From the NCBI GenBank assembly GCA_963514005.1, contig OY740786.1:87606001-87670000 (forward strand): a stretch of DNA of 64,000 nucleotides, in the 5' to 3' direction. Numbering within the stretch: position 1 is the first letter of the stretch; each line of letters begins with the position of its first letter. Under the pieces are notes generated by a model, which saw only the letters and a program-made list of their open reading frames with translations, ran no database searches and was not told the origin of the DNA. Both the position numbers and the translations under genes were made by a program. Below, one piece after another: positions 7,050 through 33,650 of the stretch. This DNA comes from Raja brachyura (taxonomy: Eukaryota).

Positions 7050-10000
7050 CTTTTAAAAAAAAAATTTAAAAAATTATGTTTTTATTAGAAGCAGTGCACA
7101 AAAGTATAAACCGCAGCATATGACATAGTACATTTATTGTTCAGCTTCCATTTTAATTTTAGCAAAGATTAAATAGAAAAAGAGAGAAGAAAGAAAGTGG
7201 AAGAGAAAGTGAATCTGCAAGAATAGAACCCCTAAACTACCAAATGAGTCTAGTCAAAGAGTGATTAAGTAAAAACTTAAAGAAATAAAAAGACAAAAAC
7301 GGAAAAAAGAAAAAGAAAAAAAAAAACGAAAATGTTGACATACCTGCTTCATTTCTCTCCCCACCCATCACCCAGTCTGTAAATCATTTTAATTCCAAAA
7401 TTGTGTTGCACCATACTATCCTTGTAATGAATCAATGGGGTGCGGCTTTTTTCTGTCGTATTCCCCGTCTTCATCTTTGTCTGCACCGAGGCCTAATGGC
7501 GGAGCTGGCGGCCTTGGGCTGTGGCACCGTTCCAGCGCCATCGGAAGCGGCGACCCGACTCGGCCCTGGAGCTGTGGCAGCATTCCAGCTGCAGCGGTGA
7601 CCTGACTCGGCCCTCGAGCTGTGGCGGCAGCAGCGGCGGCAGTGGGAGCGGCGGCAGTGGCAGCAGCGACCCGACTCGGCCTCGGAGCTGTAGCGGCGGC
7701 AGCGGCGACCCGACTAGGCCCAGGAGCTGTAGCGACAGCAGCGGCAGTGGCGACCCGACTAGGCCCAGGAACTGTGCCGGCGGCAGCGGCGGCAGTGGCA
7801 GCAGCAACCCGACCCGGCCTCGGAGCTGTGGCGGCAGCAGCGGCCCGACCGCGACCTCGGCTGCGGGCCCGGTGGACTCAGCCGCAGGTCCAGTGGATGA
7901 CAACGTCAGGAGCTCGCAGGTCACAGGTTGGTGACCTGTTTTTCTGGAGCTCCCGCAACAACAGCTTCGTCCACCAGTCTGGAGGGCGGCAGCTTCCCCA
8001 GCTTCGAGCACCCCGGGCCGCGGAGTTTGAACCGGCCTGTTCGCGGAGCACGGTTGAGCTGCGGGACTTACTTACCATCACCCGGTGGGGTCACAACATC
8101 TGAAGCCTGGATCACCTCGGCGCAGAGGGAAACAAAGAGGGAAGAGACAGAGACTTTAAGACTTTGCCTTCCATCACAGTGAGGAGGTGTTTGATGAACT
8201 CACTGTGGTGGATGTTAAATTTGTGTTTATTGTGTGTTACTGTCATTTCAATTCGAAAGGAATCCATATCTTTGGAAATTGCTCTGATTTTCCTGCTAAG
8301 CCGAGTCTCATATCTTCAAGATGTAGCATCTACTATGCAAGAGTAGTATTTTTCCAAAATTTAAGTATGTTTTTTTGCCATTATCAGGCCATAATTGAGG
8401 AAATGTCTTCGAAATATTGATAGTTCTGGGCAGGCTTCTTCTGTTCCGAAAATAATCAGTTCCGTGTGGGGGGTCCAGTTTTTTTTTTCAATGTTTTTGA
8501 GAAAATTTCAAAGATTCCTTTCCAAAAGTTATGTAGTTTTATGCAAGAGGCAAAGGAGTGTGTTATAGTTGCTTCTTGGAGGAGACATTTGTCACAAATA
8601 GGGGATACATTTGAAAAACTCAGTTTAGTCTTTGAGTAGTATAGTCTGTGCAGTATTTTGTATTGGATTAAAATGTGTCTAACATTAATCGAACAATTAT
8701 GTATATATAAAAGATATTTTTGCCATCTGTCTTTGGAAATCTTTAGGACTAGTTCCTCTTCCCAGTCTCTTCTAATTGTGACTGATGATGGAATTTCTAT
8801 ATTTAGAAGGATATTATACAAGTGTGATGTTAGATTGTTTGACTCTGAGTCTCTATTCATACCTTCGTCTAATTTATCTGGCAGCAGAGTTTGATAATCA
8901 TGGGTATATGTTGATTTTACTTGTCCCTAAATTCGCAAAGTGCTGTGAATAATCGGATTTTTATCAAACATTGTGTTCTTCAACTTTATTGGGGAGAGAA
9001 GAATCGCACCTATATTAAAAGGCGATCCTCTTTCTCCATTGATAACCAGTCGACCTGTTGGCATGCATTATCTAGCCAGTAAATTACATTTTTAGTATTC
9101 GTTGCCCAGTAGTAGTGTAAGAAATTGGGGAGCGCCAATCCGCCCATTTCTTTGGGTTTACATAGATGTCGTTTATGAATTCTACGTGATTTATAGTTTC
9201 AGATGTAATCCGGGAATGAAGATTAAAAAAAAAAAAATTGCTAGGTATATTGATTGAAATAAATAGAGAATTTGTGGGAGGAAGATCATTTTTATGGCAT
9301 TTATTCTGCCTATTAGAGACATCGTAAGTGTTTTCCAGAATCGAATAAGAGCGTTTAATTTAGTAACTAAAGGCGGGAAGTTTGCATTGAATAAAGAAGT
9401 ATATTTTCTGGTTACTTGGACATCCAAATATTTACATTTTTCTGTGGCGATTCCGAAAGGAAATTTTAAAAGGTGTGTCGGCTCTTGAGGTTTTATTGCC
9501 ATAATTTCACTTTTGTTCCAGTTTAATCTGTATCCTGAGAAGGAACCGGATTCCTCTATAAGATTTACTATATTTGGAATACTAACTTGAGAATTGGTGA
9601 TATATAATAATACATCATGTGCATATAATGATATTTTATTATTGGAGTGTTTAGTATTATAGCCGTAAATGTTCGGATGTACTCTTATACTTTCCACTAA
9701 GGGTTCAATCGCAAGGGCAAATAACAGGGGTGATAATGCACAAGCCTGTCTATTGCCCCTGGATAGTTGAAATTTCGGAGAAAGTATGTGGTTGGTCAGT
9801 ATCCTGGCATTTGCCTATCATATAGTAATTTTATCCATGAAATAAAATTCTCTCCCATCTGAAATGTTTGCAATACTGTGAAAAGGTATTTCAATTCTAC
9901 TTGGTCAAATGCTTTTCTGCATCTAATGAAATAATTATTAAGTCTTCTTCTTTAATTCTGTGTGAGTGCATTATGTTAAAAAGGCGTCTCAAATTATTAA

Positions 10001-10930
10001 ATGAATGTCTCTTGGGTATGAACCCCGTTTGATCCGAATGTATTAATTTATTGACGTAGTTACTTAATCTTCTTACCAAAGTTGTCGCTAATATTTTCTG
10101 ATCTGTATTTAGAAAGGCAATTGCTCTGTATGAACTGGGGTCTTCTAGATCTTTATCTTTTTTGGGTATGTGTGAAAGTTTTCAGCTAGTGTTTGTGGTA
10201 ATGTCTGTTCTTTAAATGCATATGTATAAAGCTTGTGTAAACGTGGTGAAATTACCTCATGAAATCTTTAATAACATTCGTTACTAAACCCGTTTGGTCC
10301 AGATGTTTTACCGTTCTTCAGTGAATTAATTGTCTCTTCTATTTCTTTGATTGAAATCTGTACTAATTCCTCTTGTTCCAGCGGATTAAGTGTTGGAAGA
10401 TTACAGTTGTCCAGAAAGTTTATAATTTTTCTGCATTCTGTTGATGTTTTGGATGTGTATACATTTTGATAAAATTGGGCAAATCTTTCGTTAATGTCTT
10501 TGGGAAGCATTAACAATTCACCTTTACCTGATTTGATTTTTAGAATAGTCTGGTCCTTTTCAACTTTTCTCAGCTGACGTGCCAAAAGTTTGTGTGGCTT
10601 GTTGCCAAATTCAAAATTTTCCTGTTTTGTAATTTGAAATAATCTAATAACTCTTGCAGATAAAATTTGGTTTAGTTTAAATTTCAATATTGATATCTTG
10701 TTGTGTTTATCTCTAGTTGGATCTTTCGCGTTTTCTAAATCAAGTTGTCTAATCTGTTCTTCTAGTTGCAATTGTTCCGTCCTATTCTTTTTATTTTGAT
10801 AGGCTTGGTATGAAATGATAGAACCTCTAATAAACGCCTTAAAAGATACCCATAATAGGGAGGTCGAGATGTCTGGGGTATCATTGGTCTAAAACAAAAG
10901 TTCCATCTGTTGTTTTAAATTTTCTACAGA
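7050..10930 (-). mobile_element. 5'-truncated, decayed L1-clade LINE (ORF2 RT and C-terminus)
   Basis: Minus ORFs 10268-10771, 9897-10079 (LIHSDQTGF, SLDAEK), 9191-9697 (SLYAHDVL) and 8456-8860 (CxxC...H...C); A-rich 3' end near 7050. Confidence 0.9.
7440..8240 (+). mobile_element. GC-rich non-coding insertion with internal tandem repeats and a 3' stem-loop, inside the L1 3' end
   Basis: Repeated cgacccgact[c/a]ggcc..ggagctgt..ggcagc units; ccatcacagtgag...ctcactgtggtgg tail shared with ~14740, ~30165 and ~39690. Confidence 0.65.
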
Positions 10931-14007: not shown

Positions 14008-14795
14008 GTGGCTCGGTGGGGGCGCTGCGAGCCGGCAGCCCTACCAGAAGCGTGTCAGTTTTTTTCTACTTTTTTTGTTTTTTTAGTGTGTTTAAATATG
14101 TTTTTAATTTTTCTCTGTGTGCCTTGTGTGGGGGGGGGTAAGGGGGAAACAGCTTAGGTCGCCTCCTCCATGAAGAGGTGACTTTTTCCATGTCGCCTCC
14201 CCCTTGGCCTAACATCGAGGATCGGTGCGGCCTTTCCCGGAGGCGCGCCCGGGGATTCAGCACCGGGCGCAGCGTGGACTCTCGTCGCGGAGCGGGCGAG
14301 TTCTCGCCGGGGCTCTCCAGAGGGGAACACTCCATTCGCTGGCCCGCGGCAGCCTGAAGCTGGGGTCTGCAGAGCTCCAGTCGGCGTAGCGTCCTGGGCC
14401 TGGGGTCCCTCATTGGAGACCCGGGAAAAGAAGAGATCCGGCCGCCGGCCCGCGGCCAACTTCTACCGTGGGCACGGCGGGGACTTACCATCCTGGGCAG
14501 GGTCCCTAGCCGGGAATCCCTGGAGGGGAGCTTCGAACGCGGCCTGAACTTTAAATCTTCGACCGCCGGCCTGTGGCCTACACCAGCCTGAAGCCGCAGT
14601 CTCTGGTGGGGAGGCACCGATTCAGGATTTACCTGGACTTTTACCTTGTCTACTCATCTGGACGCCCGCAGCGGCGGCTGCGGAGGGTTGAGGTCCCTAC
14701 CATGGGGGAAAATGGAGGAGGACTGACCACATTTTGTGTCTTCCACCACAGTGATGAATGCTGTGGTGGATGTTCGTGTTAAATTTTTATTGTGT
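14008..14795 (+). mobile_element. GC-rich non-coding repeat with the shared 3' stem-loop tail
   Basis: CpG-rich body ending ttccaccacagtgatgaatgctgtggtggatgtt, related to the 7440-8240 tail. Confidence 0.6.
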
Positions 14796-15482
14796 GGCCT
14801 TCCAGTGTCTCTATGCTGGAGTAAGCCTTGCGCCAGCTAGCTCCGTGGAAAAATGAAAAAAAAGGGAGAAAAAACGGGACCGCTGAAAACTTACCAGCAG
14901 CTTGTGTCGAAGGGTGCGTGACGTTATCAGACCGCGACGGCGGTTGTTTAATGTTGACCCAAAGAACTCCCCGAAAGTACAGGCAAGGAAAACCCGGGTT
15001 AAACAAGAAGTAGGCTCGAGCAAAGCCTCAACCTCAATTTCAGCGTCGTCCCAAGAAGAAATTTCTAAACAGGGTCAGAAGGTAAGACCTAAAAAAACGG
15101 AATGGACGAGTTATTTCAGAAGAAATATCTGTCATAAGGGAAGAACTGAACATTTTTAAAGAAGAAACATCAGATTCATTTCAGACTGTCCATACTAATA
15201 TCCTCGAAGAATTGTCTCCCTGGAAGGACGAAGTAAGTGGAAAAATAAACCGACATATGGAAGAGGTAAATGCTAAATTTAATAAATTGGAATCCAAGCT
15301 TAACTCTAAGTTGGATCCAGTTATTATTATAGTAAATCAGCATACTACAGCTATAACTGAATTAGAGTCAATTGCTCAGACAGGTGCTGACACTATGAAA
15401 AGGGTCTTAACTGAGACCAAGCATTTATCAGAATTATTGAATAACATTTCTGAAAAATGTATCGATTTGGAGGGATGCTCGA

Positions 15483-15643
15483 TGTAGTGTATTTGGGTGC
15501 TTGGAACTGACTTGAAAGAACACTCAGATACAGGAGTAAACTAACAAGCTTCTTTATTCCAGGACGCCACCTTGAGTCTCCCCCAGCGCATGCGTCCCCT
15601 CACACAAGACATAACATATGCTAATTATATCACATACATCACA
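15483..15643 (-). repeat. 3' LTR
   Basis: Direct repeat of 26120-26280; AATAAA on the minus strand; preceded on minus by PPT aaagggggagcag. Confidence 0.95.
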
Positions 15644-15657
15644 CTGCTCCCCCTTTA
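15644..15657 (-). promoter_or_regulatory. polypurine tract
   Basis: Minus strand taaagggggagcag directly abuts the 3' LTR. Confidence 0.85.
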
Positions 15658-15884
15658 ACTTGGAGGCCGGTAACACCATTTACATTATATACATGACACT
15701 GCTACCCCTTTAACTTGGAGGCGAATAACACCATTTCTATTACATTAAATATAATTGATTAACACACTGTTGCAAAATTATATTATTACAGTCATCTTAC
15801 ATTGCATCCTCACAACTGTAATAATCATATCTAAACTTAGCACATAATTTTTTCATTCCACTAAACGACATATATTACCCCTTG

Positions 15885-16400
15885 CTTTATGTGTTATCCT
15901 TTTCCGTTCCCTTCTGTGTAAAGTGTGCGCTCTTTCTAATCACTCTAGCCCTACCTGTAACTCTGCCTCTTCCCTTTTTAAATGTCCTAATCTAATTTGC
16001 AGATTTCTTCCTGTTCCTGATATTCAGCTAAAGTTAACATTTCCTCTGTTTCTGTTCCTTATTTGTAGGTGGGATCTGACACATGACTGCAGGTTTTCGT
16101 TTTCTAGCAGCTTCTTCTGTCGCTCAATTTCCTGGCGCTGCGTGTTTATCTGCTCTTGCTGTACAATAACATTCTGCAATGCATAACCATTTGTCCATTG
16201 CTCAGTGAAGGAGGCTCCATGCTGGACTATAGTGAAGTGTCCTAATCGCAATCGGTCCTGCATACTTTTGTCTTGACCGACAAGCCTCTCTTCTTTAGAC
16301 TTTTCTATTAACAGCTTTTTGCTCATCGTCACACATTTATTTAACCATTCTTTGTATCGTTTAAGCCTTTTCTGTTGTTCATCTATTTGTCTTAAATCAC
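15885..16400 (-). pseudogene. tlk2: captured intronless TLK2-like coiled-coil region (no kinase domain), frameshifted
   Basis: [61 protein letters not shown]; after frameshifts [22 protein letters not shown] and RLGHLKREEAE. Confidence 0.9.
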
Positions 16401-16409
16401 CTTTCTGGT

Positions 16410-17470
16410 TCTTCATCAAGAAGTAGGATCTGTATTGTCTTTACAATACAACAGTGGCTTTGATTTGTGCTCTGTATAGTTTTCTTACTACATAAGCACG
16501 GTAGTGAGACTGCACTACAACTGCTGTATAAATCAGTTTGAGGAAGTCTTTCGTATATCGTTTAAGCCTTTTGTATCATTTCAGCCTTTTCTGTTGTGCA
16601 TTTATTTTTCTTCTTAAGACGTTCCTATACCAACTCATACGGAGTACTGACTGCACTTTTACAGAGGCCCTCCTTTGCTTAACCCACTGCCTAACCACCA
16701 TACCCTTGTAGGCAGCTTGAATGGTAATAGTTGCATACCTCATTGACTGATATTGCACAAACTGGGAATGCCCTATTTTGCATGCTTTGTACCATCTCTG
16801 TATCGAAATGACTGCGTGTCGCATAGCTCTGTAGCGTACCCTTGGTATGCACGGTATGCAGCTTGCAGAGTGACTAGAGCCGCCTTTTGCATCAAGAAAT
16901 GTTTTCTTGTAATGCACACCATTATGACTGACTTAATATGGCGTGCTGCCTTGATTTTCTCAACCAATTCTCTGGCTTTAAACCTGCAGTAGAAGGGCTG
17001 AATACAAACCACTGCTTTTCTCAAACTATTATAATGTCTCACTTGGACATCTCTTATCTGGCAAGCTCTGTATCGTTGCTGTACCGCAATGGCAGACCAA
17101 CGTAGTTTCTTGAAATACTGATGCTGTTTATGCATCTGATAATAAATCTGTATAACCTTGGCAGATTTGTGCATGCCCCGCAATTGCTTTCGAACAAGGA
17201 TTCCTCGGTAGGCAGCCTGAAGCAGTACAACGCTGCTGTGTACCTTCATGTAAGTCTTGCGATCACTTTCCATTTGAAGGTGTGCCCTATAATGGGTTTG
17301 TACTATTATAGCTGCCAATCTCATTGCCCTGTATGGACGGTATACTCTGTGCCTTCTAAATACTGTTTGTATTACCGTTGCTGCCTTCTGTTTGTTCCGG
17401 ATCTCTCTCCGTATCTTCATACCCCTGAATGCAGCTTGAATAGTTAGGGTTGCCCTCTGGTTGGCAATGT
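16410..17470 (-). pseudogene. aspm: captured ASPM-like IQ-repeat region
   Basis: More than 12 tandem IQ motifs (IQAAFRG, LQAAYRG, VQQRYRA, IQRWYKA, IQAAYKG) at ~23/27-aa spacing, as in the large ASPM IQ exon; ORFs 16773-17777 and 16576-16917. Confidence 0.85.
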
Positions 17471-17689
17471 CCCTTTGCATTTGACTTTTGTTCCTTTGCC
17501 TTTGACCGTTGACTTGACCTTGACCTTTGTCACTTTGCCCTTGACCTTTGTCACTTTGCCTATTACCTTTGGCCTTTTTCACTTGACCTTCGTCACTTTG
17601 CCCTTGACTTTTGTCACTTTGCCCTTGACTTTTGTCCTTTGAGGGACTCCCTGCCCTCTTTAGTTCAGGCTCCTTGCCTCTGGATGCCC

Positions 17690-20600
17690 TTGGAGGTTTT
17701 GGCGAGAAATGAGCCATTAATGCCTGCTTACACTCCTCGTACATTTTGTCTGTGGGCTTTGCTGGCTGCAGTAACATACGTAAGGTCTGATAAACCTCTC
17801 TTCCTTTTTTAAATTAAAAAAAAAAAATCTTTATTTATTAGAGGTACCATAAGTTACATCAGTGTACATCCCATGTATATTATTGCAATCATTGTACCCC
17901 TTAATTTTTTAAGGCTTTAGAAAAAAAGAAAGAAGAAAGAAATATCAACAGAGAAAGTAGAGAAAGTGAAAAAGAATTGTGAAAGTGAAAAAGCGTGCCA
18001 GAGGGAAAGGGAACCCTTGGGCGAAGAGTTAGAGAAAGGAGATTAAGAGATAGATCCTGGAGAGGAGAAAAAAAAGGGAAAGAGAGAGAAGGAAAAAAGA
18101 AAAGCCAGTTACTTTATTATAAACATCGCGCAAAAGGAATCTACCAACTCAACAGTTTTTCTTCCCCCTTTACCTGACACCGGTACTTTTTTGAGGTATT
18201 CTTGCTCCTTATCCTTGTAGTAGATTTATAAATGCAGACCACATCTTATAGAAACAGTCTGATTTTCCTGCCAGTCTCATATCTTCCAAATGTAGTGTTT
18301 CAAACATAGTTGAAATCCACATATTAACTGTTGGTATAGGAGTATTTTTCCAGAATTTTAAGATTAGCTTTTTTCCTGTTATTAAGCTGTATTCAAATAG
18401 ATTATTTTGAAACACATTTAATTCAGGGCTATCGTCCGTTGTTCCAAAGATAATCCAGTCTGCTTTTGGAGTCAGTTTTATTTTAAATACTTTTGTGAAA
18501 ATTTCAAAAATGTCAGTCCAAAATTTTTGAATTTTTGCCCAAAATGAGTGCGCTATATTAGTTTCTTGACATTGACATTTATCACAAATAGGTGAGACAT
18601 TGGGAAAAAGTTTATTTTAGTTTTTGAATAGTATAATCTGTGTAAGATTTTAAATTGTATTAAAGTGTGTCTTACGTTAATTGAATATTTATGCACATTT
18701 AATAAATATTCTTCCCACCTTTTTTGGAAATTTTTATACTTAATTCTTTTTCCCAGTCTCTTCTGATACCTTCTGTTGTTGGTATTTCTGCGTTTAGAAT
18801 AATATATATATGATATTAGGTTTGTTGATTCAGCCTTTGTATTCATTACTTCTTCCAGTAAGTCTGGAGGCATAGTGTGATAATCTTGTGCGTATTTTTC
18901 CAGATAGTCACAAATTTGGAAATATTTAAAATACTGATTGTTTCCCAAATTGTATTTTAGTTGTAATTGTTTAAATGATAATAGTTTTCCCGTTTCATAC
19001 AAATCCCCGAAGGTTTTAATTCTGGCTCTTTCCATTGTATAAATGCTTTATCTATAATTGAAGGTTTAAACAAAGGGTTTTTACCAATAGGCGATAAGAG
19101 AGAAACATTTCTTAATTTTAAGTTGTGTTTTATTTGTTTCCAAATTCTAATTGTACTGTGTATAATTGGATTTTTGTTGTAATTTGTATTATTCATCGTC
19201 ATTGGTGAAAGAAGGATCGCTCCAATATTGCAAGGAGAGCAGTCCTCTTTCTCCATAATAATCCAATCCGGTTGCTGGGGAGAGTTATCCAGCAATTGGA
19301 TCATATTTCTAATATTTACAGACCAGTAGTAATACATGAAATTGAGGAGTGCTAATCCCCCTACTACTTAGGGTTTATTCAGATGAGCTCTTTGTATTCT
19401 GTGAGATTTATAATCCCAAATAAAATTTGTGATATCTAAGTCCAGTTTTTTAAAAAACGTTTTGGGTAGGTATATTGGAATTGATTGGAACAGATATATA
19501 ATTTGTGGTAGAAAAATCATTTTTATGGTGTTTATTTGGCCTATTAAGGCCATCGGAAGCGTTTTCCAAAATTTAATAAAGTTATATAGTTTCTTAAGTA
19601 GAGGGTTACAATTTGCGTCAAACATGCCTTGATATCTTCTAGTGATTTCGATACCCAAGTATTTAATTTTTTCCAAAGCTATTTTAAAAGGAAACTGTAA
19701 AAGATGTGTAGAATCTTTCAGTTTTATTGACATGATTTCACGTTTATTCCAATTTAGTCTATATCCTGAACATGATCCAAAGTCCTCTATTAAGTTTAAA
19801 ATATTTGGTATAGTAATATGAGGTTTTGTGATGTACAATAGTACATCATCTTGTATAATGATATTTTATTGTTGGAATATTTTGTTTTATATCCATGGAT
19901 ATTCGGATGAGTTCTAATTATTTCTGCCAGGGGTTCAATTATGAGAGCAAATAACAGCGGTGATAGTGAACATCCTTGTCTATTACCCCTTGACAATTGA
20001 AATTTCGTAGATAAATTATTGTTAGTTAATATTCTGCCCGTTGGCTTATTATATAATAATTTAATCCATAGAATGAAATTCTCTCCCAGTTGAAATTTTT
20101 GCAATACCTTGACCATATAATCCCATTCAACCTGATCGAATGCTTTCTCTGCATCCAACGATATAATTGATAGTTTTTGATCTTCAGTTTGGTGTGAATG
20201 CATTATATTGAGCAGACGTCTCAAATTATTAAATGATTGTCTCTTAGGGATAAACCTCGTTTGATCCGGATGTATTAATTTACTGGCATATTTACTTAGA
20301 ATTCCAGCTAGTATTTTCGCTAATATTTTTTGATCTGTGTTTAACAACGCAATAGCTCTATATGATCCGGGTTCTTCCACATCTTTATCTTTCTTAAGTA
20401 GTAATGTGATCGTGGATTCTGCTAGTGTTTCAGGTAGTATTTGTTCTTTGAAGGCATAAGTATACATTTTCTGTAGGCGAGGTGTAAATATGTCATAAAA
20501 ACTTTTTATATATGACTTTTATAAAATTCATTACTCAATCCGTCGGGACCTGGTGTTTTTTCATTTTTTAATGAGATTATTGTTTCTTCTATTTCCTTAT

Positions 20601-23600
20601 TTAAGATTTGTGTTCCCAATTCCTCTTGTTCCTGCAACTCTAGTTTAGGAAGGTTACAATTATCCAAGAACTCTGTAACTTTGTTGGTGTCCGTTGTCGT
20701 TTTAGATGTAAATTTAGATTGTAAATTCTTGTAAAATTATGCAAATCTTTTATTAATATCACTCGGCAAGGTCAATACTTCCCCTTTGTCTGATTTGATC
20801 TTTGAAATTGTGTGATCCTTTTCTCGTTTTTTTAACTGACGTGCTAGAGGTTTATGGGGCTTATCCCCAAATTCCAAATGTTCCTGTCCTATAATTTATA
20901 ATAATCTAATGACTTTCTCTGATAATAATTTATTTAATTTAAATTTCAGTATTATTATTCTATTATGTTTATCCGTAGTGGGGTCTTTAGCGTTTTCTAT
21001 GTCCAGTTGTCTAATTTGTTCTTCTAACAGTCTTTGTTCGTTCTTATTTTTCTTATTTTGAAAAGCTTGGTATGAAATTATAACGCCTCGAATAAATGCT
21101 TTAAAAGATTCCCATAATAGTGTAGGTGATATGTCAGGCGTATCGTTTATTTCGAAAAAAAGATCCATTTGCTGTTCTTAGTCATTCCTTCCATTTTTAG
21201 AAAAAAAGTTAGTGGGGAGTGATCTGAAATCGCATTTGAGTGGTATTTTGGTTTAGAAGTATGGGGTACTAATTTTGTATCCACCAGGAAATAATCTATA
21301 CGTGAATATGTCTTGTGTACCATTGAATAGAATGAGTAATCCCTGCCGGTCAGATTTGCAATCCTCCAGACATCTGTTATATTTGTGTTTTTTATATATG
21401 TGTTTAGAAGTTTGCTAGTTTTGGATTTCGTAATACCCCTCTGTTTTTGATTGGATTCATCTAAGTAAGGGTTTAAAACACAATTAAAGCCGATTATGAC
21501 ATTCTGGTAATTATATTCTGCAATTATATTCAAGATTTTATTGAAAAAATGCGGATTGTCAAAGTTGGGCGCATATATATTTACCAAGGTAATTGGGGTA
21601 GCATGGATCTCCCCGGTAACTATCAAATATCTCCCGTCATTATCTGTTAAGGTAGTTTTGGGTTTAAATGGAATGCCTTTGCGAACAATAATAGACGTTC
21701 CTCTAGATTTCGACGTGTATGACGAGTGAAAAGTTTGCCCTATCCAGTTCGCCCTCAATCTAGCTTGATCTTGAAGATTAAGGCATTTCTTGTAAGAAAG
21801 CAATATCTGTGTTTCAGCTGAGCTAGAGCTCATCTTTCAGCTGAGCTAGAATCTTACCCCTTTTAATGCGTTCGTTAACACCCCTAACGTTACAACTACA
21901 AAATGAGATTCGTCACTGTTTATTTTGGTTATTGTCTTGCATTTTGAATAGATTTAATACCTATGTATCTTGCGGCGCATCCGTACCTCAGGTCTTAAAT
22001 ATTGGGGGATCATTTACCCTACAAAGTTCAAATTAGTAGATTCCCTTTGCGATTGTCCTTAAATAGAAAAAACACACATGTGAATAAATGTGATAATAAT
22101 TTTTTAAAAACTAATACAAGTGAAAATACAGTGTTCGAACTTGTCGGCACTGTAACAAGTGACCCACCTGTTGGTGGGAGAAAATATTTTATCGACTTCC
22201 GTTGTCGATATAAAACAAACAAATAGCTCCTCTAGACGTTCCTCTAGATTTCGACGTGTATGACGAGTGAAAAGTTACTCATTACTCTATTACTCATAAC
22301 ATACTGGAGCGGGACCGGTTTACAGTATATATATCCATTTCATCAATATTCCCGGATATAACTAACATTTTTATCTACTATATGTGAAGCGTATATTTTA
22401 ACCTCGGAAATCATCAACTGTTGGTTGAAGGGGTTAACCTGTTACTGGCTCCTGGAACTGAGCCAGGAGCCCGCCTCTGCCCCTCATGCCCCAGTTATAA
22501 ATCTACTTGAGATTTATTAAGTTAAATTATAAATATTAATTTGTAAATCACCCTTTCTACATTTCTGATTAACATTCATACTATTTCTATGTTAGTATTC
22601 TATGTTAATATTGTTACAAATGTTAATTCTATACCATTTAGGTTATCATTAAATCTCATATACAACAGTAATTGCTAAGCCCACAGTCTGTTGTTGAGCT
22701 CTTCATTTCGGTGGTTATCTTTTTTTCCGGTTCCCTTGGGACAGAGTTAGCATTCCACCAATAAGACGTCTAGACAAAGTTCCTTCTTCTGGCAGCACGC
22801 CACCATTCAGGGTGAAATGGTAAAAAGAGAGAGTATCCATACTGTCCGACCTTTCCAGCTAGTCCTTGTGTTCCACGATGGTTAGAGCATATTTGTATGC
22901 CTCCTCGGGATTTGTGAACGATTTTTGCTGTTCCTTGGAGATACGCATTTTAGCTGGGTAGTAAACAGCACATCAAACCTCCTTATTTCCTTGGAGAGCC
23001 TGCTTTGCCTTAGAGAACTGATTTCGCTTTTGCATAATTTCATAGGGATAGTCCCTGAAAATTTTAAAAGTTGTTGCACCATACTTCAGAGGCACTCCAT
23101 ATTTGATATTACTCATAACCTCTTCCACATCAGAAATGTCCCGGAATTTCACAATAATCTGTCATGTATGTTCTGAACCAGTATGAGATTTGGATTTAAA
23201 TCTAGGAACTCGGTGTGCCACTTCAATTTTCGGTAGGTTAGGGAGCTTAATAGCTTCTTTAATTAAGCCCGCAGCGAACTCGCGAATGTTATCTCTCTCA
23301 GCTCCCTCTGGTATGCCAACTAATCTTAGATGTTGGCGTCTCGAAACGAGCTTCCAGATCCAGGCTTTTTTTTTGTCTGAAACTTTAGGCAGCTGAGTCG
23401 CCATCCGTCGTGGAGCAAGGTCTTGTTCTGACCTCACATTCTTCATCTCCTCCACCATTCTTGCCATCTCTTCCTCCATCTCGTGCATTGATGACATACA
23501 GGTTGAGACAGTGTCCAGCACATCACCGAGCTTCTTCGTGGTGTCTTCTTCACCCTTATCAATTCTCTCCGATAGTTCATCTCTCACATCGTCAATTCAT

Positions 23601-24293
23601 TTATTTATAGTGCGAATCGAATCCTTCACAGACTCAATAATTTTCTGTTTACCAGCAGTCATATTCAGCGTCAGCTTTTCTATCTTTTCCATCATCACTC
23701 CCATCATCTGTTCCATCTTTTTTCCATCCACCTTTACATCTATCAGTTCACTTACCGAAAGCTTTAATTCTTCAAATTCTTTGTCCTTGGCCAAATCTGT
23801 CTTAGATCTTGTAGCCATGTCGGAAATCACCTTTTCTTCAGAAGCCACTTCAAAAATAAGTTCTTCAGGCTTCGTCTGGCTTCCCCAGGAGTGTTTTGTA
23901 ACTGTTCTCTGAGTGCTCTTACCAGGAGAAGAATTTTTCATTTAAAGTGTTTTAAGCCTCCGTTAAAATCACAGCGCTTACTGATGACGTCATCAGTGCG
24001 ACGTCCAGAGGCTCCGGTAAGTTTTTTAAATTGGTCCCGACCAGTAGACCCGATTTTAACGCGAAGAATCGTGAATTTTATGGAGCGGTGCTATGTGCAG
24101 CATCTGTTATTGTAACATGGCTCCACCGGAAGTCATAACCCTCTCTTCCTAAGCCTAATATGAACCATGCTCTCTTCTTTTCCTCTGCAGCGATATCATT
24201 GGAAATGAAACAAGCCTCCAGGACTTCGGTCCATTTCTCAAAATTACACCCAGAATCTAACTGGGGCACGTTTCCTACAATTTGAAAAGCCAT
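17690..24293 (-). pseudogene. Mag-clade-like gag N-terminus split by the L1 (24293-24140 joined to 17794-17690)
   Basis: Rejoined: MAFQIVGNVPQLDSGCNFEKWTEVLEACFISNDIAAEEKKRAWFILGLGREVYQTLRMLLQPAKPTDKMYEECKQALMAHFSPKP, matching the recalled W..Y.ERL..F..N.I...KK...L...Y..L..L..P.KP....Y..L...L..HF.PK pattern. Confidence 0.8.
17806..24139 (-). mobile_element. full-length (~6.3 kb) but frameshifted L1-clade LINE nested in the gag
   Basis: 11-bp TSD cctctcttcct (17795-17805, 24140-24150); 5' end gacttccggt; ORF1 (SRRQHLRLVGIPEG, IEVAHR); inter-ORF region; APE (21147-21833), RT (19796-20467, RQGCSLSP) and C-terminal fragments; A-rich tail. Confidence 0.93.
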
Positions 24294-26099
24294 GCTACCT
24301 GTTGCTATTCAGGTGCACTATATTCTGTTCTCTCACGGCGTTTCCTGCACTGGACGTAATCCTTTTACACACTAAGAAGTGATCCAGTCCACTGACTATT
24401 ACCAATTCATATAATAATAGATTTATACTATTAACCAACATTTAATGTCAATAGCCATTAAGAACATTTTAAACCATATTCCTTCTATGCACACAGATTT
24501 ACTATTAACAGTGACCAATGCATTACATTCAAACAGTCCTGCTTTTACTGTGGTCATGCATTACATTCACAGAGGGCTTTTATTATGAAGTATTTCACAG
24601 CTCCAGCTTGTGGCCTGTGGCCTGGTGCATCCTCGACCTCTCGAGCTATCCCCACTGGTACCTTTGCTGATGGCCTCATTGGACCTCCACTTTTGCTGCT
24701 TTTGTTGGTTCCCGCGGGCTTCACCGTTACTTTTGCTGCCGCTGGCTCGCTGCCAAGTCGACTCCTGCTGCTCTGCTGACTTGCCTGCTGTCTCCCTTGG
24801 ACGCCCTGCGGAAGGTAAGTCGCTGCTGCTGGTCCCACTGCTCAGCTCATCGCTGGCTCACCGTCACGCCTGGCTGCTCAGCTCATCAGGTCTGTGCCCC
24901 GCTGTCGGTGGCTGGGTAAGCATTGTGTCCCACTTCTCTCACACAGACCCTCTTCTCTCTCTCTGGCGGCTTTCTCTCGCGACTGGGCTGAAGTGCTTGA
25001 GTGCTGTATGCTGCTTCTCTTGTGTGGACCCAGTCTTCGCTCGGGGCCGGATTTCCTCTCATGTCCGGGCTTTCCCCGCTCTCGGCCGTCTCTTGCGACC
25101 GTGCGCTGTGTCCCGCTTATCTCGTGAGGCCTGGTCCACTTCTCTCTCGCGGTCAGCTTTCCCACTCGGTCGGTCCACTTCTCCTGCATGGACGGACCCT
25201 CTTTTCTGCTCACGGTCGGGCTGACTCTGCTCCCGACCTGGCTTCCTCTGCTCGCGGTCGTCTCCTGCGACCGGGCTTTCTCTCATGACCGGGCTGTCTC
25301 TGCTCCCGGCCTGGTTGACTCCATTTTTGTCGGTGGCTTCTCCGGACCTGTCCGTGGCCCTCACTCGACGTTGGTGGCGGCACCTGGGCCTGGCTGTGGG
25401 CTTCACAGCCCTGGAAAATGTTCAAAGTCGGTGGCGGTCTCCTGGGCCTCTTCTGCCCCTTTGCCATGGCTGCACGGCCCTGGAAAGCGTTCCAGGTAAG
25501 TTGACACCATCGCTGTCCTGCTGGTTAGGCTTCCAGCTTTCGGCTGTGTTCTTCGGTGACACTTACTTACTGCCCCACTTGTTTTCCTTGCTTCCTGTTC
25601 CGATCTTTCTTTTCTTTGGCGCCAATTCAAAACCATTTGGCGCCAAATCTTTTTGCTTAGTGCCGTTCCACTTTGTTTCCAAACACAACCTCTTTTTAAC
25701 TTTTTTTTCTCTTGACAGCCTATTTTCTTTGTTCTTTTCTGTTCTTTTATCCTCGTTGCATCGTTGTCCTTGTTGTGTGTTTTGGTGTAACAATTCACCT
25801 AAAACATAGCTGTACAAAGATTATTCAGCTTGAGGAATTCGACAAAAAAAACTCAGTCTAAAATGTGTAACAATCCGAAGGACGACGTCTTGCCACATAG
25901 ACACAACATAGAGATAGCCTGACAAACTCGCCGAATTGTACAGCTGATGTTTTAAACTACAGTCCCATGCTTAGAGGGATCTGCAGGCCTCTCATGTCCA
26001 TCTCGCAAACAACTGCGACACAACTCCGTATCTACTGTTTGAACTGTTAAACAATCCTGCGTGTTGCAAAACAGTCCTGCGGGTGAGTTCACAAACTCC

Positions 26100-26117
26100 A
26101 TCCCATCCTCGTCGCCA
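26100..26117 (-). promoter_or_regulatory. primer-binding site, tRNA-Ser(GCT)
   Basis: Minus strand TGGCGACGAGGATGGGAT, 2 nt after the 5' LTR; complementary to the recalled vertebrate tRNA-Ser(GCT) 3' end ATCCCATCCTCGTCG-CCA. Confidence 0.85.
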
Positions 26118-26119
26118 AT

Positions 26120-26280
26120 TGTAGTGTATTTGGGTGCTTGGAACTGACTTAAAAGAACACTCAGATACAGGAGTAAACTAACAAGCTTCTTTATTCTAGG
26201 ACGCCACCTTGAGTCTCCCCCAGCGCATGCGTCCCCTCGCACAAGAAATAACATATGCTAATTATATCATATACATCACA
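26120..26280 (-). repeat. 5' LTR
   Basis: Direct repeat of 15483-15643, followed on minus by the PBS. Confidence 0.95.
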
Positions 26281-29200
26281 CTCGAAACGTCAGAACCTGA
26301 GAATTGTGGGAATCAAAGAGGGCAGAGGGAAATAAAAACCCTCATGAATTTGCTGGCGATCTTCTACAAAAGGTTTTAAATTTAGATACAAAGACTCTAC
26401 TGGATCGTGCACATAGGGCATTGAGATCACGTCAGAACAATGCCCCCCCCCCCCCCCCCCCCCCCCCCGAGACATTTGATATTGAAGGTGCATTATGACC
26501 ACGATTTGGAAAACATCTTGACGAAAATTGCGGCAACAGTAACCTATCATTTGAAGGGTAACAATATTCGTATTTTCAGAGACTATCCCGCAGAGGTTGT
26601 CAAGAGAAGAGCGCTTTTCAACGAGACAAGAGGAATTCTCAAGAAGATTTCAAACCTATGATTTGGACTGTTGTATCTGCAAAACTCCTACATGCATAAG
26701 GAACACTTCTTTACCGATCATAAGAAAGCATTTGAGTTCGCCCAGGACATTGAGAAATCAGCGGAATGATGAACAACATCTCCACAGGGTCATCACTTGG
26801 CGGAGAACAAATGGAACTGTAAGTTGTTATACTTAAATGATAGTTGAGCAGTTATCTTGCTATTAATTTACAACTACTATTATTATTTAGTAGTAAATAT
26901 TAATAATTATTACTAACTATTATTAATTTATACTAGTAAGATAAGAGTTAGTTACAAATAAGAAATGTAATTAATACCTAATGCAGGGATTTCATTTTAT
27001 TCTAATTTTTAATTTTTTTTTTGAATAATTAACTAATATTGGACTAATATTTTTTAACTAATATTTCTGACTAATAAAAAATTCCCCGTCACTGAATTAA
27101 AAATCCATCAGACCTAATTCTCTCTTCTTTTCCCCCTCCCTTTTACAAATTGTTATTACTGAGATTTCTTTGTCTTTTAAAACACGGAACTAGTACTATT
27201 TTTTAAAAACAAGGCTACAGAAGCCCTTAGAATTTTAGCCACGCTAGTGTGGCTATCACTAACTACACTTACTGTAGTTGTAGTTTTTCTATCTTTTTTG
27301 CACCCTACTAACTTTTTATCTTCCTATCTTAGCTTTAATTATATAAATATTAAATTTAATTATAAGATTTTTTTAATGAGATATGTTTGAGATGAAGATT
27401 TATCAAATTTAAAATTCACCAATCCTGTGTTCGGGTGGAATACCAGATTCAAGGTGTTGAACCATTTGCTTCTTTACAGGCCACCCTATCTATATGATGC
27501 AAGATGTTAAAATGAAAATTGGGGGTGAAGGAATTACATTTTGTTGTTGGAATGTCAAGGGTATTAATGAACCAATCAAGAGAGGTAAAGTATTAGCACA
27601 TTTAAAATCACTCAAAGCTGATATAATATTCCTTCAAGAAATTCATCTTAAAAATGAAGCACAACATAGACTGAAAGCAAAATGTATTGTTAAAACATAT
27701 CATTCCTCATTCTCCCATAAGTCTACAGGGGTTGCAATTTTAATCCGTAAGGGTATACCTTTTAAACATGTGTCAACTATTGCGGATATTGATGGTAGAT
27801 ATATTATATTGGTGGGTGAATTATATTCAGAAAAAGTAATCTTCCTTAATGTTTATGGTCCAGATTTTGATAACCCACTGTTTTTTAATAAAACACTTAA
27901 TACTATTCTGGGACTTACACAATACAAGTTGATAATTGGTGGTGACTTAAATTGCACATTAGACCCTTATTTAGATAGATCATCAAGGCAAAGGAAAATA
28001 AAATCCAAGTCAAGTGAATTATTAAATTCATATATTAATACTACCAATATCAAAGATGTCTGGAGAATAGAAAACCCTACTGGATGAGAATATTCATTTT
28101 ACTCACCAGTACATAAAGCCTATTCAAGAATCGACTATTTTTTAGTGGACTCCAAACTTATCCCATATACATACAATTCAAAATATGAAAATATTATAAT
28201 TTTGGTTCATGCACCTTTAACATTCATGGTTAAATTAAAAGGTATAGATGAGAAGCAGGTACACTGGAGACTTAATCAAATTCTAAATGATAAAGCGTGC
28301 TGTGAATACCTCACAACACAGATTAATATGTTCATTCAGATGAAGGATCTCCCAGAAACCCCTGTCTCCCTTCTGTGGGAAACATTTAAAGCATTTGTAC
28401 GAGGAGCGCTTATCTCCTCCCAAGCCTTTCACAATAAAAAGAGCCGAGCTAAACAGCATGAACTAGAAATGGAAATAAGGCAACTAGATATTGAAAACGC
28501 GATAGCACGCTCTATGATAAAACACAACAAAATTGCTGCACTTAAATATGTTAAATCACATATATTCAGACCAAATTATAATACTTTATCAACATACTAA
28601 ACAATTTCAATTTGAATTTGGTGATAAACCACAAAAGTTGCTAGCTCCTCAACTTCGCAAGTTAGATCAGGAAAAAACAATTCATAAAATCAAATCACAT
28701 ATGGGAGAAACACTATCATTGCCCAAGGACATCAATGACAGATTTTTGAAATATTCTCAGACACTCTACTCATCCAAAAAAGCAGACTGTTCTATGAGAA
28801 TGGAAATTCTTAAAGAAATTTAATCTTTCAGGATTAGATCTGAGAGAGAGCGAATTATTAGGTGCTGAAATTTCAATGAAAGAAATTGAAGAGACCATTA
28901 GATCCTTGAAAAATGGAAAGGCTGCGGGCCCTGATGGTCTAAATTCTAAATTTTATAAACAATTTAATGATTTGATCTCCCCATGCCTACAGACATTATA
29001 TAATTATGCTTTCACACAGCAGGTACTGCCAGAAACTTTAAATGAATCAACAATAACACTTATACCAAAAATTGATAAAGATCTTGACCCTGGCTCAAAT
29101 AGAGCAATAGCTCTTTTAAATACCGATCAGAATATATTAACAAAACTCTTAGCCCACAGATTAAGTTTAATAATTCACAAATTAATACATCCTGATCAAA

Positions 29201-29451
29201 CAGGTTTTATCCCAAAATGCTATTCATTTTATAATTTGAGACGTATATTGTTTAATATAATATACTCAAATAGAGTAGCTAATGTAGATTTAGCAGTCAT
29301 CTTGTTAGATGCTGAAAAAGCATTTGATCAGGTAGAATGGCCCCATCTCTTTTCTGTGATGGAAACATTTCAATTGGGTGAGACATGGGTTAAACTCCTA
29401 TATACTAATCCATCAGGTAGAATATTGACAAATCAAATGTTATCACCCAAA

Positions 29452-30030
29452 TGCAGTGATGCCTGCTGCCACCAACATGAGGACCCGCTAAAACTGGATT
29501 TCCTGTCCATGCATCGTTGCACTCATTTGTGCCCATACAGCAGAGTTCACGGTGGACACTTTGAGCGATGCACAATTAACAGGTGTTTTATATCTCGTGG
29601 CCGTCTCTTCCATAATCGTATCCTGGAGCTGGTGAGAAGCCATGTAATTAACATTGGCGGCCAGGTTTTATTCCATGGCCTCACCAGTCCCTTCCGGAAT
29701 AGTGAAGTTTCTCGCTACATCCGGGACACCTAGAGCATGACTCATGTGCTCTGGTGTGTGCACCAATGCAGTGACACCAGCTTCAGGGTCAGCCTCCTCC
29801 TGCCCTGGCTCTCCCGAGTCATGCTCCAGGGAGGTCTCTTCCAGCCCTAAACAAGGTGCTGGAGAGGGTGATTCACACTGGTATCCATAAGCGGTGTATT
29901 CTTCTTCGCTGTATGGACCTCTGCGAGAGGCTGTGTGGGGAATCCTAGGGGCATTCGACCCCAATTTAAATTTTACATGGCTCATTAAGTTTGGAGCATT
30001 TTTCCATTTGTTTGAGCCATCCCCATACCT
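29452..30030 (-). mobile_element. DIRS-like (tyrosine-recombinase retroelement) gag/ORF1 fragment
   Basis: Reading through the stop of ORF 29668-29985 gives YKTPVNCASLKVSTVNSAVWAQMS...IQF*RVLMLVAAGITAF, resembling the recalled DIRS gag motif Y..P.NC..L.V..VN..IW. Confidence 0.55.
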
Positions 30031-31413: not shown

Positions 31414-32439
31414 AGCAGTGAATGCATTTTGTTGTACACCACATTACTCTCACACTGCCAACAACTTTTTTTTTAATTATGTTTTTGTACTGACATCTTG
31501 TCCATGTTTCATAAAGTGCCCACAATGTCAACTTAACTTCTTTGAAGTTGTGACTTGTTAAGTTCTGCATCCCACGTGAGAAAACCGACCGACCTTTGGT
31601 TCATCATTTCATCCAAATAAAGGCACATATTTTAACATGGCAGCACCCCCTCAATTCTACATCCAAATGTCAGCCTAGAAAATTGTGCTCAAGTCATTGG
31701 AATGGGTCTTGAAGTCAAAAGTGCTTTGAAATGTGAAGATATGTTGCAAATGGTTTTAGTTTAATGATATTGTGAAGTAATGTCAGAGTAACAAATTGGA
31801 ATCATACAGATTTTAGATTGTTTTTAGCCACCAAAGTGTAAGCTATGGAGTGTAAAGGAAAGCCAAAGGGTTGGTCCTCAGTGAGAATGATGAAGAGACG
31901 ACCAAGGACACCGTTTATAGGAATACTGTGGCGTCAGCCACTTAAGCTCGAACCCTCGTCAGGAGAGGGCGGGCACACGACGTCATGGGCAGAGGGAGTG
32001 TCCTGGTACATAAGCTCTCTCACCACGAGATCCACCAGGAGTTTCTACCGGTAGCTGAGCCCGAGGGCACAACCTCGCTCAGCTACAACAACTCTACATA
32101 TAGTTAGCGCACCCACTATATGTGTGACAACAGAATAAAGAACCAGTTGCACCAACCTGATGTCTCCTCTTTATTCGCCACGTATGGTGCTGCTACATTG
32201 GTGACCCCCGACTGTCCAAATTTAAATTTGGGCTCACCTGAAGAAGCAGCCTCGGGAGACCTGATGTCTGCAGCCGGCTGCCCAGCCCTGCAGAACTACG
32301 CTGCCGTCAACCAGGCCCTGCAGTGAGGTATGTCGCCGCCTACCCACCAGCTGCTGCAGGAGCTGCGAGCATTGCAGTCTCCTGCCCACGGCAGCCCCGA
32401 CCCACGTCTCCAGGCCCCAGCACCGGTCCAGGCCTCACT

Positions 32440-32710
32440 GGGTCTCCAGGCCCAGCACGGCTCCAGGCCTCACCGCGGCTCCAGCCCCTGCACCGGACCC
32501 GGCTCCAGGCCTCACCGCGTCCCCAGGCCCTGCACCGGACCCGGCTCCAGGCCTCACCGCGTCCCCAGGCCCAGCACCGGACCCGGCTCCAGGCCTCACC
32601 GCGTCCCCAGGCCCTGCACCGGACCCGGCTCCAGGCCTCACCACGTCTCCAGGCCCAGCACCGGACCCGGCTCCAGGCCTCACCATGTCTCCAGGCCCTG
32701 CACCACGCCT
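32440..32710 (+). repeat. 42-bp tandem repeat, ~6 copies
   Basis: Unit ggctccaggcctcaccgcgtccccaggccctgcaccggaccc. Confidence 0.9.
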
Positions 32711-33294: not shown

Positions 33295-33650
33295 CAGTCT
33301 CGTCGCACCCCTCGGTACATCGGGATCTCACACGCAGAGCGTCAACTGCGCCCGTGTAGAGCACCGTCCCGACCCACGCCCGGGGTGTCCCAGACCTCTT
33401 CTGTCCGGCGGCTTCTACATCCGTCTCCTCGCACCACTCGGTACATCGGGATCACCCACGCAGAGCGTCAACTGCGCCCGTGGAGCCCTCCGTCCCGACC
33501 CACGCCCGGGGTGTCCCAGACCTCTTCTGTCCGGCGGCTTCTGCATCGGTCTCCTCGCACCCCTCGGTACATCGGGATCGCCCACGCAGAGCGTCAACTG
33601 CGCCCGTGGAGCCCTCCGTCCCGACCCACGTCCGGGGTGTCCCAGACCTA
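33295..33650 (+). repeat. 126-bp tandem repeat, ~2.8 copies
   Basis: cggtacatcgggatc recurs at 33313, 33439 and 33565. Confidence 0.9.

Follow-up and report, generated by a model that had tools for sequence, protein, structure and literature searches.

LTR-mediated retrocopies of animals, as described in PMC5131818, are partial, intron-less sense pieces of mRNA within an LTR element, with microsimilarity at the junctions, two parental genes per chimera and possible further rounds of retroposition; the cases reported there, from fly, mosquito, zebrafish, chicken and mammals, are for the most part loci that are young or in decay. The maize LTR element Bs1 carries pieces of several host genes in one hybrid frame; according to published descriptions, this chimeric gene is both transcribed and translated (PMC13317346, PMC7264820, PMC5131818).

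The gag-onc fusions of acutely transforming retroviruses join a truncated gag in frame with captured, spliced host mRNA in a helper-dependent genome. TR-GAG, LARD and TRIM elements keep their LTRs, primer binding site (PBS) and polypurine tract, have lost pol and are mobilised in trans. Arc, PNMA and PEG10 are domesticated Gypsy capsid genes, each a single locus under purifying selection.

Here we analyse a window of 64,000 nt from Raja brachyura (assembly GCA_963514005.1, contig OY740786.1, positions 87,606,001 to 87,670,000; coordinates below count from its first letter). Unlike the LTR-mediated retrocopies, the chimera found there belongs to a family of more than 100 dispersed copies, in which subfamilies succeeded one another and protection of the reading frame can be measured. 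Compared with Bs1 it is a vertebrate Gypsy element, with no sampled copy intact and residues near neutral. Set against the gag-onc retroviruses, no env is seen, the relatives are of Gypsy gag-pol type, the captured parts lack catalytic domains and protein-level conservation is absent. Its Gag, in contrast to that of TR-GAG, LARD and TRIM elements, is reduced to the capsid N-lobe and its frame is mostly host-derived, and it is dispersed and decayed where Arc, PNMA and PEG10, of the same capsid family, are not. We regard the family as LTR-mediated gene capture of the maize Bs1 type, in a form for which we found no earlier description. In the literature outside subscription journals and Repbase/Dfam, we found no relevant paper linking ASPM or TLK2 with LTR elements or sharks, and no earlier account of an LTR element mobilised in trans in which translation per se was selected.

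Results

Structure of the element and its family

The locus holds a dead element of a non-autonomous Ty3/Gypsy LTR family in which pol and the capsid C-lobe have been lost; the internal region consists of leader, gag remnant, ASPM and TLK2 (Table 1). A PBS query gave 21 genomic matches to the tRNA end against 0 in the control, and the PBS-matching tRNAs checked (2/2) are both tRNA-Ser(gct). We take the serine PBS and the 5-nt target site duplication (TSD) to fit the Mag clade of Ty3/Gypsy, which makes that placement a possible one.

Table 1. Features of the element and of its L1-like insert, in the order of the element's own strand
Feature	Position	Strand	Remarks
5-nt TSD	26281..26285, partner 15478-15482	(-)	exact 5/5 match
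5' LTR, TGT...ACA	26120..26280	(-)	161 nt; 158/163 identical to 3' LTR
PBS	26100..26117	(-)	complementary to tRNA-Ser(GCT) 3' end
Leader, purine-rich, 1.8 kb	24294..26099	(-)	partly common to pol-bearing relatives; 29 ATGs
gag codons 1-51, first part of capsid N-lobe	24141..24293	(-)	72-85% nt identity in 18/20 pol-bearing loci
15-nt target duplication of L1-like insert	24135..24149 and 17790-17804	(-)	one mismatch between copies
L1-like non-LTR element, 6,330 nt	17805..24134	(-)	ORF1 and ORF2 broken; private to this copy
gag codons 53-86	17691..17792	(-)	ends at boundary of capsid N- and C-lobes
gag remnant (from behind capsid) and tandem-repeat linker, 21-nt (7-codon) unit	17491..17690	(-)	
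Host ASPM IQ exon piece, ~residues 1601-1941 of 1,999-codon exon frame	16395..17490	(-)	88% nt identity to host ASPM; ASPM homologues
In-frame 72-nt insert	16554..16625	(-)	common to younger subfamilies; remnant of duplicated ASPM/TLK2 junction
TLK2 mRNA piece, five exons without introns, ~residues 209-387	15901..16391	(-)	in frame with ASPM piece
Polypurine tract	15647..15656	(-)	before 3' LTR
3' LTR	15483..15643	(-)	partner of 161-nt 5' LTR

The N-terminus, for which the preliminary description had proposed a Gag origin, is indeed Gag: it shares 60% identity with residues 1-85 of P0027, a gag-pol protein of the Gypsy type with PNMA/Retrotrans_gag, knuckle, protease and Integrase_H2C2 domains. 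Twenty copies compared with P0027 match its gag parts only. The deletion in gag sits exactly at the border of the two capsid lobes (the helices run to 81 and the C-lobe spans 85-180). This C-lobe matches the C-terminal domain of PEG10 CA by structure (Z 10.8, rmsd 3.7, 90 aligned), and matches to PF14893 and PDB 7lga support the same capsid family as Arc, PNMA and PEG10. A PDB sequence search with P0027 gave no capsid match, and the Foldseek output was dominated by proteases.

The family has at least ~115 copies; 305 candidates were collected by DNA, 117 were scored by protein and 76 were read from the gag start. It has spread by true retrotransposition, with TSDs that match at 4-5 of 5 nt in 21 of 28 copies. 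Of 20 loci chosen by gag alone, 19 carry ASPM. Pol-bearing relatives have the LTR (70-82%) and gag in common with it and lack ASPM. A search of 20 pol-bearing loci for a helper with near-identical LTRs found none, the best LTR being 82%.

No intact copy exists among the 76 read from the gag start or the 117 scored. From the gag start the longest frame is 276 codons, so that 0/76 copies are open for at least 391 codons, and outside host ASPM no frame of any kind is longer than 533 codons (117 scored). The single, locus-specific protein envisaged earlier is not supported, given this dispersal and the lack of an intact copy among those sampled. Sampling is partial (76 copies from the gag start among several hundred candidates), which would leave room for one copy having become a host gene of the Arc, PNMA or PEG10 type, with the present locus as its decayed paralogue. 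The frame lengths just given and the neutral private changes (omega 1.16-1.29) speak against such domestication, to which we give hardly any credence; neither an intact frame at a fixed locus nor purifying selection on residues, both traits of a domesticated Gag, appears in the sampled copies.

Captured host sequence

Spliced pieces of ASPM and TLK2 mRNA were captured at short common sequences, of ~7 nt (one mismatch) at the gag/ASPM junction and ~5 nt at ASPM/TLK2. The five TLK2 exons are joined at AG/GT borders, with the introns absent. Removed introns and fusion-point microsimilarity are also among the marks of the LTR retrocopies of Tan et al. 2016. One copy, L149, has longer captured pieces that include an ASPM exon junction, and a search for further copies of its kind found only L149 itself and host exons. 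The 21-nt unit of the linker is similar to ASPM sequence at the capture junction. At the present locus a 4-nt gap near 16845 and a stop at 16443 interrupt the ASPM piece; the TLK2 piece has three family indels (net 30 nt) and stops early at 16024.

The preliminary description recognised the IQ motifs and missed ASPM as their source and TLK2 as a second captured gene. Its count of about nine needs degenerate motifs, as PF00612 is above cut-off in three stretches of the fusion frame and a simple pattern finds six in this piece. Only myosin V and IQCG were returned by a PDB sequence search with the IQ part.

ASPM and TLK2 are essential cell-cycle genes, and the family's copies have 86-90% identity to host ASPM. 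Carrying parts of such germ-line genes might make small-RNA silencing costly to the host, in which case the family would owe its success to camouflage, without translation; the idea is discussed for plant elements in PMC13317346. It predicts that nucleotide identity to the host is conserved, rather than the frame, and we consider it very improbable as the cause, while camouflage may act on top of the requirement for translation that we favour below.

The L1-like insert

An L1-like element separates the two ends of the frame that the preliminary description had joined. The join is free of stops, as claimed: 24293-24141 (51 codons), one further codon and 17792-16773 (339 codons plus stop) make 391. 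Copies free of the insert, which it had suggested looking for, occur throughout the genome. The join is not due to chance, because in 26 of 29 other loci the insert is absent and the gag start runs directly into the downstream piece, and because contigs from 3/4 public runs (probably DNA) skip exactly 6,345 nt at the insert site. The junction is thus real, but the residue claimed there derives from the 3' TSD copy and differs from that of uninterrupted copies. The frame ends at 16773 only through the 4-nt gap near 16845, private to this copy when compared with host ASPM. The length of 391 codons does not hold for the family, whose frame of ~670 codons continues through more ASPM into TLK2.

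The insert matches PF03372 at E = 4e-4 (weak, below cut-off) and PF00078 at E = 2e-27, and has a poly(A) signal and a T/A tail. Several L1 clade traits are present: an ORF2 with endonuclease and RT, a 3' tail and a long (15-nt) TSD. Its three broken ORF1 pieces gave no L1 ORF1 Pfam match; their motifs, presumably, resemble the L1 type. The L1 arrived later, in this copy alone, and is irrelevant to the family.

Reading frame

Capsid N-lobe, repeat linker, ASPM and TLK2 lie in a single family frame. At clade level, a heuristic category in a tree that resolves the young clade poorly, no frameshifting indel falls in the 1,560 nt made up of gag, ASPM and codons 1-99 of the TLK2 part, whereas 11 of 11 indels are non-triplet in 928 nt of non-coding sequence (leader, LTR, 3' UTR), and there are 0 stops against 4.2 expected (P = 0.015). 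Two different sets of indels compensate the only shared frameshift, at TLK2 nt 298, and at nt 437-449 the frame is restored in 40 of 59 copies. One off-frame stop has been deleted in 13/13 copies of the clade that reads that frame and kept in 28/28 of the non-reading clade; a second is lost in 27/28 copies of the clade reading it and kept in 12/13 of the other. Nine shared rearrangements are all in frame (P = 0.002 even with a 50% prior for each). Statistically, these counts show that the source elements, as they multiplied, held one frame open from the gag ATG to ~100-300 nt before the 3' LTR. The earlier proposal that the fusion frame was translatable before the L1 landed is supported in so far as the frame was open in the source elements by then.

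Some observations speak against the explanation favoured below. The repeat linker is off-frame in 27/55, above the rate implied by flanking private indels, and a few copies with a common 7-nt linker slip may derive from an off-frame template. Both junctions peculiar to L149 are off-frame. Within the old subfamily, 3/6 copies read in frame across the gag-deletion junction and 5/7 from knuckle to ASPM. A near-uniform net frame from ATG to ASPM (23/21/16) resolved, segment by segment, into private indels plus the linker. A stop common to 46 copies was an artefact of two changes in one codon and vanished with real codons. Free decay after a new stop was considered for the shared indels behind TLK2 nt 298 and rejected, as alignment and per-copy reading show compensation.

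The pieces might instead be neutral passengers, captured by template switching, with junctions in frame through coding microhomology and IQ periodicity and no selection at all. Junctions at shared codons and an omega of ~1 fit this account, the mechanism that produced the 21-nt unit and the 72/222-nt changes could itself yield triplets, and most young LTR retrocopies are in frame with their parents (Tan et al., PMC5131818). It leaves unexplained the 0 versus 11 small clade-level frameshifts, the lack of clade-level stops, the two separate compensations, the clade-specific loss of off-frame stops and the nine in-frame rearrangements. Neutral passage is already disfavoured, and we think it improbable.

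Residue-level conservation

Statistically, residues are shown not to have been conserved while the family multiplied. Clade-level N:S is 14:5 in gag, 32:8 in ASPM and 56:24 pooled, and the old-to-young diagnostic changes stand at 24:8. Omega is near 1 overall; a pooled value of <=0.5 is rejected (P = 0.015), as are, on the source branches, <=0.3 for gag (P = 0.01) and <=0.5 for ASPM (P = 0.005). The zinc knuckle, kept in the old subfamily, was later lost, and 46 TLK2 codons are read off-frame, and so scrambled, in the subfamilies with most sampled copies. A low pN/pS of shared changes proved to be an artefact of transition bias and vanished with transition/transversion stratification. The look at ORF integrity and dN/dS in other copies that had been suggested thus has a divided outcome: no sampled copy is intact and omega is ~1, yet at subfamily level the frame is guarded.

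Some protein-level constraint is possible. Omega is 0.38 (10:11) in the first 99 TLK2 codons (P = 0.016, uncorrected), and IQ core positions took 5 of 63 shared changes, slightly below expectation (P = 0.053). Together with the conserved frame, a gag deletion placed precisely between the capsid lobes and a knuckle kept in the old subfamily, these values would suit a fusion protein needed in cis. Its N-lobe would dock on helper particles and its ASPM IQ/TLK2 coiled-coil tail would bind calmodulin or spindle/chromatin partners, aiding its own RNA into particles or the germ-line nucleus. The low omegas rejected on the source branches, the lost knuckle and the scrambled TLK2 codons count against such a protein, as does the fact that capsid assembly of the ordinary kind is unlikely without a C-lobe, and we judge it unlikely. 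The capsid-associated calmodulin binder of the preliminary description is poorly supported, with omega ~1 in gag and IQ, the C-lobe deleted and the zinc knuckle lost.

Discussion

The frame was kept while the residues were free. This suggests that being translated mattered more than what was made. We favour, as somewhat probable, an explanation in which translation of the source elements had to proceed almost as far as the 3' LTR, with the host pieces acting as open-frame filler. The family would be mobilised in trans by pol-bearing relatives, and selection in cis would be for the passage of ribosomes along the genomic RNA. An early stop would leave as much as 2 kb of 3' UTR and make the RNA liable to nonsense-mediated decay (NMD); alternatively, it would break a translation-linked packaging step. 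Only derivatives with open-frame internal filler would then have multiplied, a role that in-frame pieces of host coding sequence could serve.

The need for translation would probably reflect escape from NMD. Premature stops in RSV gag lead to Upf1-dependent decay of unspliced RNA, as reported in PMC2925335. The 29 ATGs of the leader fit a simple NMD model badly.

It is tempting to speculate that the success of this vertebrate family rested on a chimeric protein of capsid N-lobe, ASPM IQ repeats and TLK2 coiled coil, which brought its own RNA to helper particles or to spindle/chromatin of the germ line. Failing this, the family may preserve a natural trace of selection for translation per se, with frame and stop position kept, residues free and frameshifts compensated twice, in an LTR element mobilised in trans. 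We hold this two-part proposal tentatively and think it rather doubtful.

Non-autonomous LTR elements are usually viewed as non-coding passengers. When a mobile element has a long chimeric frame in which domains can be recognised, this alone is no evidence for a functional protein, and annotation and read mapping can be misled by the many ASPM and TLK2 look-alikes in the genome (445 and 837 candidates at first look). Across dozens of copies that can be compared, the family would record a need to keep a 2-kb frame open without needing its own protein, and its two host donor genes are built-in references for the changes in the copies. A standing question may thereby become testable, namely whether the deletion derivatives and gene captures that multiply are chosen by RNA surveillance or by packaging linked to translation.

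Results

The frame lies in a minus-strand LTR element with a 5-nt target duplication, a tRNA-Ser(GCT) primer site and a polypurine tract, its two LTRs being identical at 158/163 positions. The preliminary description held that excising an inner L1 restores a 391-codon frame, and this is borne out: 51 codons precede the break, one falls at it, and 339 codons and a stop follow, with no internal stop in either piece. The insert carries a tail and is flanked by a target duplication of 15 nt whose copies differ at one base. The L1-free copies sought by that description exist, the gag start being fused straight to the downstream piece in 26/29 other genomic loci, and contigs of 3/4 public runs (three studies) skip exactly the insert; it is therefore private to the window copy. 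The length of 391 codons stands for this copy alone, where a private 4-nt gap near 16845 ends the frame. The family frame runs gag, linker, ASPM, TLK2 for ~670 codons (sum of parts). Around it, the window holds three nested layers, L1, LTR element and L1, and a second, short LTR-like element that looks very young.

Features of the window
Feature	Position	Strand	Remarks
5' LTR	26280-26120	minus	
Leader	24294-26099		1.8 kb, purine-rich, very variable among copies
Frame, first piece	24293-24141	minus	
Inner non-LTR element	between the two frame pieces		6,330 nt; endonuclease (weak) and RT matches, tail
Frame, second piece	17792-16773	minus	
Linker	17468-17641		21-nt unit made of 7-nt sub-repeats
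3' LTR	15643-15483	minus	
Older L1-like element	14700-15482, 26281-29700	plus	LTR element inserted in its ORF1
L1-like ORF2 remnant	8255-10914	minus	kin to inner insert
LTR-like element	31926-33977		direct repeats of 272 nt (99% identity) separated by 1,780 nt; GC-rich tandem arrays inside (units 42, 50, 126 nt)
LINE	40434-43968 (minus), 44020-45327		GDSL-esterase-type first ORF, then endonuclease and RT; preceded by 82-copy 16-nt array
Copy related to this LINE	61650-63949	minus	21.6 kb off

In the 2.7-Gb host genome, a DNA search gave 305 family candidates, of which 40 were scored, and a protein search 117 scored places, nearly all family copies. We retrieved 88 other copies, using the IQ part to choose 48, gag for 20 and TLK2 for a further 20; ASPM was present in 19/20 of those chosen by gag. 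Target duplications agree at 4-5/5 positions in 21/28 copies having both LTR ends; the copies therefore arose by retrotransposition. Raw LTR pair divergence, not clock-converted, has a median of 5% (n = 30) and is 3% for the window pair. At G000:C1:42701210-42714870 in the host assembly, three copies of equal score lie 6.4 kb apart, as a tandem triplication or an assembly repeat. The family (window 15400-26400) was also found in runs X1, X2, X10 and X11, labelled as three organisms (A, D and E), and may be older than their split.

The Gag N-terminus claimed previously is confirmed by an uninterrupted natural copy that shares 60% identity, across 85 residues, with the beginning of P0027, a Gypsy gag-pol protein with PNMA/Retrotrans_gag, zinc-knuckle, protease and integrase domains. 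Among 20 P0027-related loci in this genome, our pol-bearing comparison set, the gag 5' end recurs in most (72-85%), 13/20 share the LTR (70-82%) and none (0/20) carries ASPM. The family itself lacks pol; the element tracks its relatives' gag for ~250 nt and then skips ~350 nt. In an AlphaFold prediction for P0027, made from 63 sequences, a set of three helices ends at residue 81, and residues 85-180 can be superposed on the C-terminal domain of the PEG10 capsid (Z 10.8, rmsd 3.7, 90 aligned). The element thus lost the capsid C-lobe, which is the lobe the fold match concerns, and kept the N-lobe.

The IQ part matches ASPM proteins, the window piece being 88% identical to the last internal repeat of the host ASPM exon and the unique part after it. 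That exon (locus L043, G000:C10:10603230-10609226), a frame of 1,999 codons, contains four tandem ~657-nt repeats, 91-95% identical, apparently a recent expansion or homogenisation. The stretch behind the ASPM piece, left uninterpreted in the preliminary description, has 82% identity to TLK2 residues 212-307 and consists of five host exons fused at AG/GT borders; the host's own TLK2 piece matches a shark protein at 186/187 residues, which points to an elasmobranch host. One copy, locus L149, crosses an ASPM exon junction. Since introns are gone at the TLK2 borders and at this junction, both pieces were captured from spliced RNA. Capture junctions fall at short shared sequences, as described for template switching in a passage of PMC5131818. 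The 21-nt linker unit looks like amplified ASPM sequence from the capture junction, and the whole linker segment varies in length from 93 to 429 nt between copies.

In a phylogeny of 83 copies, with the host genes as root (copies with <700 aligned nt excluded; young clade poorly resolved), the old subfamily contains N-lobe, zinc knuckle, ASPM and TLK2. In later subfamilies the ASPM/TLK2 junction was duplicated (+222 nt) and then cut to +72, the zinc knuckle is gone and the 21-nt repeat linker was gained. L149 (G000:C2:90628800-90635000) is basal, a single copy with its own junctions, both off-frame, a longer ASPM piece that extends into the following exon, and a TLK2 piece starting at residue 119. 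It implies a longer precursor, which was not found in a search for further copies.

Individual copies decay neutrally after insertion. On ORF integrity and dN/dS, the checks named in the preliminary description, the outcome was unfavourable: 0/76 copies stay open for at least 391 codons when read from the gag start, 276 being the longest, and private changes have an omega (N/S selection ratio) of 1.16-1.29. The longest frame outside host ASPM among the 117 scored places is 533 codons. Among the copies sampled, the family has neither the intact frame nor the purifying selection on residues by which a domesticated Gag gene is tested.

In the source elements, the reading frame is guarded. We split clade-shared changes from private and recurrent ones across heuristic class boundaries, excluding CpG sites and the near-identical duplicates L138 and L072. 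There are 0 clade-level frameshifting indels in 1,560 nt (gag, ASPM and the first 99 TLK2 codons); in the 928 nt of non-coding sequence (leader, LTR, 3' UTR) there are 11 clade-level indels, all non-triplet. Clade-level stops number 0 against 4.2 expected (P = 0.015). The sole shared frameshift, at nt 298 of the TLK2 piece (52/67 copies), was compensated twice: in the middle clade the net change is 24 nt, in the young clade 3 or 30 nt. The TLK2 frame is regained at nt 437-449 in 40/59 copies and at nt 470-520 in 34/59. One off-frame stop is deleted in 13/13 middle-clade copies, whose frame reads through there, and retained in 28/28 young and 11/11 old copies, which read another frame; a second is lost from 27/28 young copies, which read its frame, and retained in 12/13 middle ones. 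Reading from TLK2 codon 90 comes to within 55 nt of the piece end or passes it in 25/59 copies, ending 100-320 nt upstream of the 3' LTR where measured.

We regard it as highly improbable that the captured pieces are neutral passengers. Several observations do speak against our reading of the data: the linker is off-frame in 27/55 copies (20/55 fit the 21-nt ladder exactly, and 8 deviate from it by 7-8 nt, slips that may be inherited), L149 is off-frame, the leader holds 29 ATGs, old-subfamily junctions are in frame in 3/6 and 5/7 copies, and ASPM-to-TLK2 spacing is in frame in 34/65. The remaining off-frame junctions and spacings look like private indels, which may include assembly errors, with clade-level counts unaffected.

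The residues were not guarded, having evolved near-neutrally in the source elements. For gag, the N:S ratio at clade level is 14:5 where neutrality predicts 13.1:4.9; for ASPM it is 32:8 (28.2:9.6 predicted), and young-versus-old diagnostic changes are 24:8, without a stop. The first 99 TLK2 codons (10:11 against 14.0:5.9, P = 0.016 uncorrected) and the IQ cores (5/63 shared changes fall at core positions, P = 0.053) suggest that there may be some constraint on the protein. Omega <=0.3 is rejected for gag and <=0.5 for ASPM and for the pool, and the best-sampled subfamilies dropped the zinc knuckle and read 46 TLK2 codons off-frame; we find it doubtful that the chimeric protein itself was needed.

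Discussion

The element belongs to the non-autonomous Ty3/Gypsy elements and LTR-mediated retrocopies, its closest single analogue, as far as part of the published account goes, being maize Bs1. A literature search linking ASPM or TLK2 to sharks or to LTR elements returned nothing relevant, repeat libraries and subscription journals lying outside its scope.

We propose a model where the family is mobilised in trans by pol-bearing relatives and selection would favour ribosomes travelling almost as far as the 3' LTR. A need for translation to that point is, in our judgement, the probable reason why the frame was kept, with nonsense-mediated decay and translation-linked packaging as candidate causes. 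Nonsense-mediated decay would be the simplest; translation-linked packaging would be an alternative within the same reading. In Rous sarcoma virus, according to an excerpt of PMC2925335, premature gag stops destabilise unspliced RNA via Upf1 and the natural stop is shielded by a special element.

What is new here is the vertebrate scale, the fusion of two donors into a single frame that follows a capsid lobe, and the evidence that selection acted on the frame, not the protein. A derivative without pol would survive best with open-frame filler, and in-frame host coding pieces may supply it.
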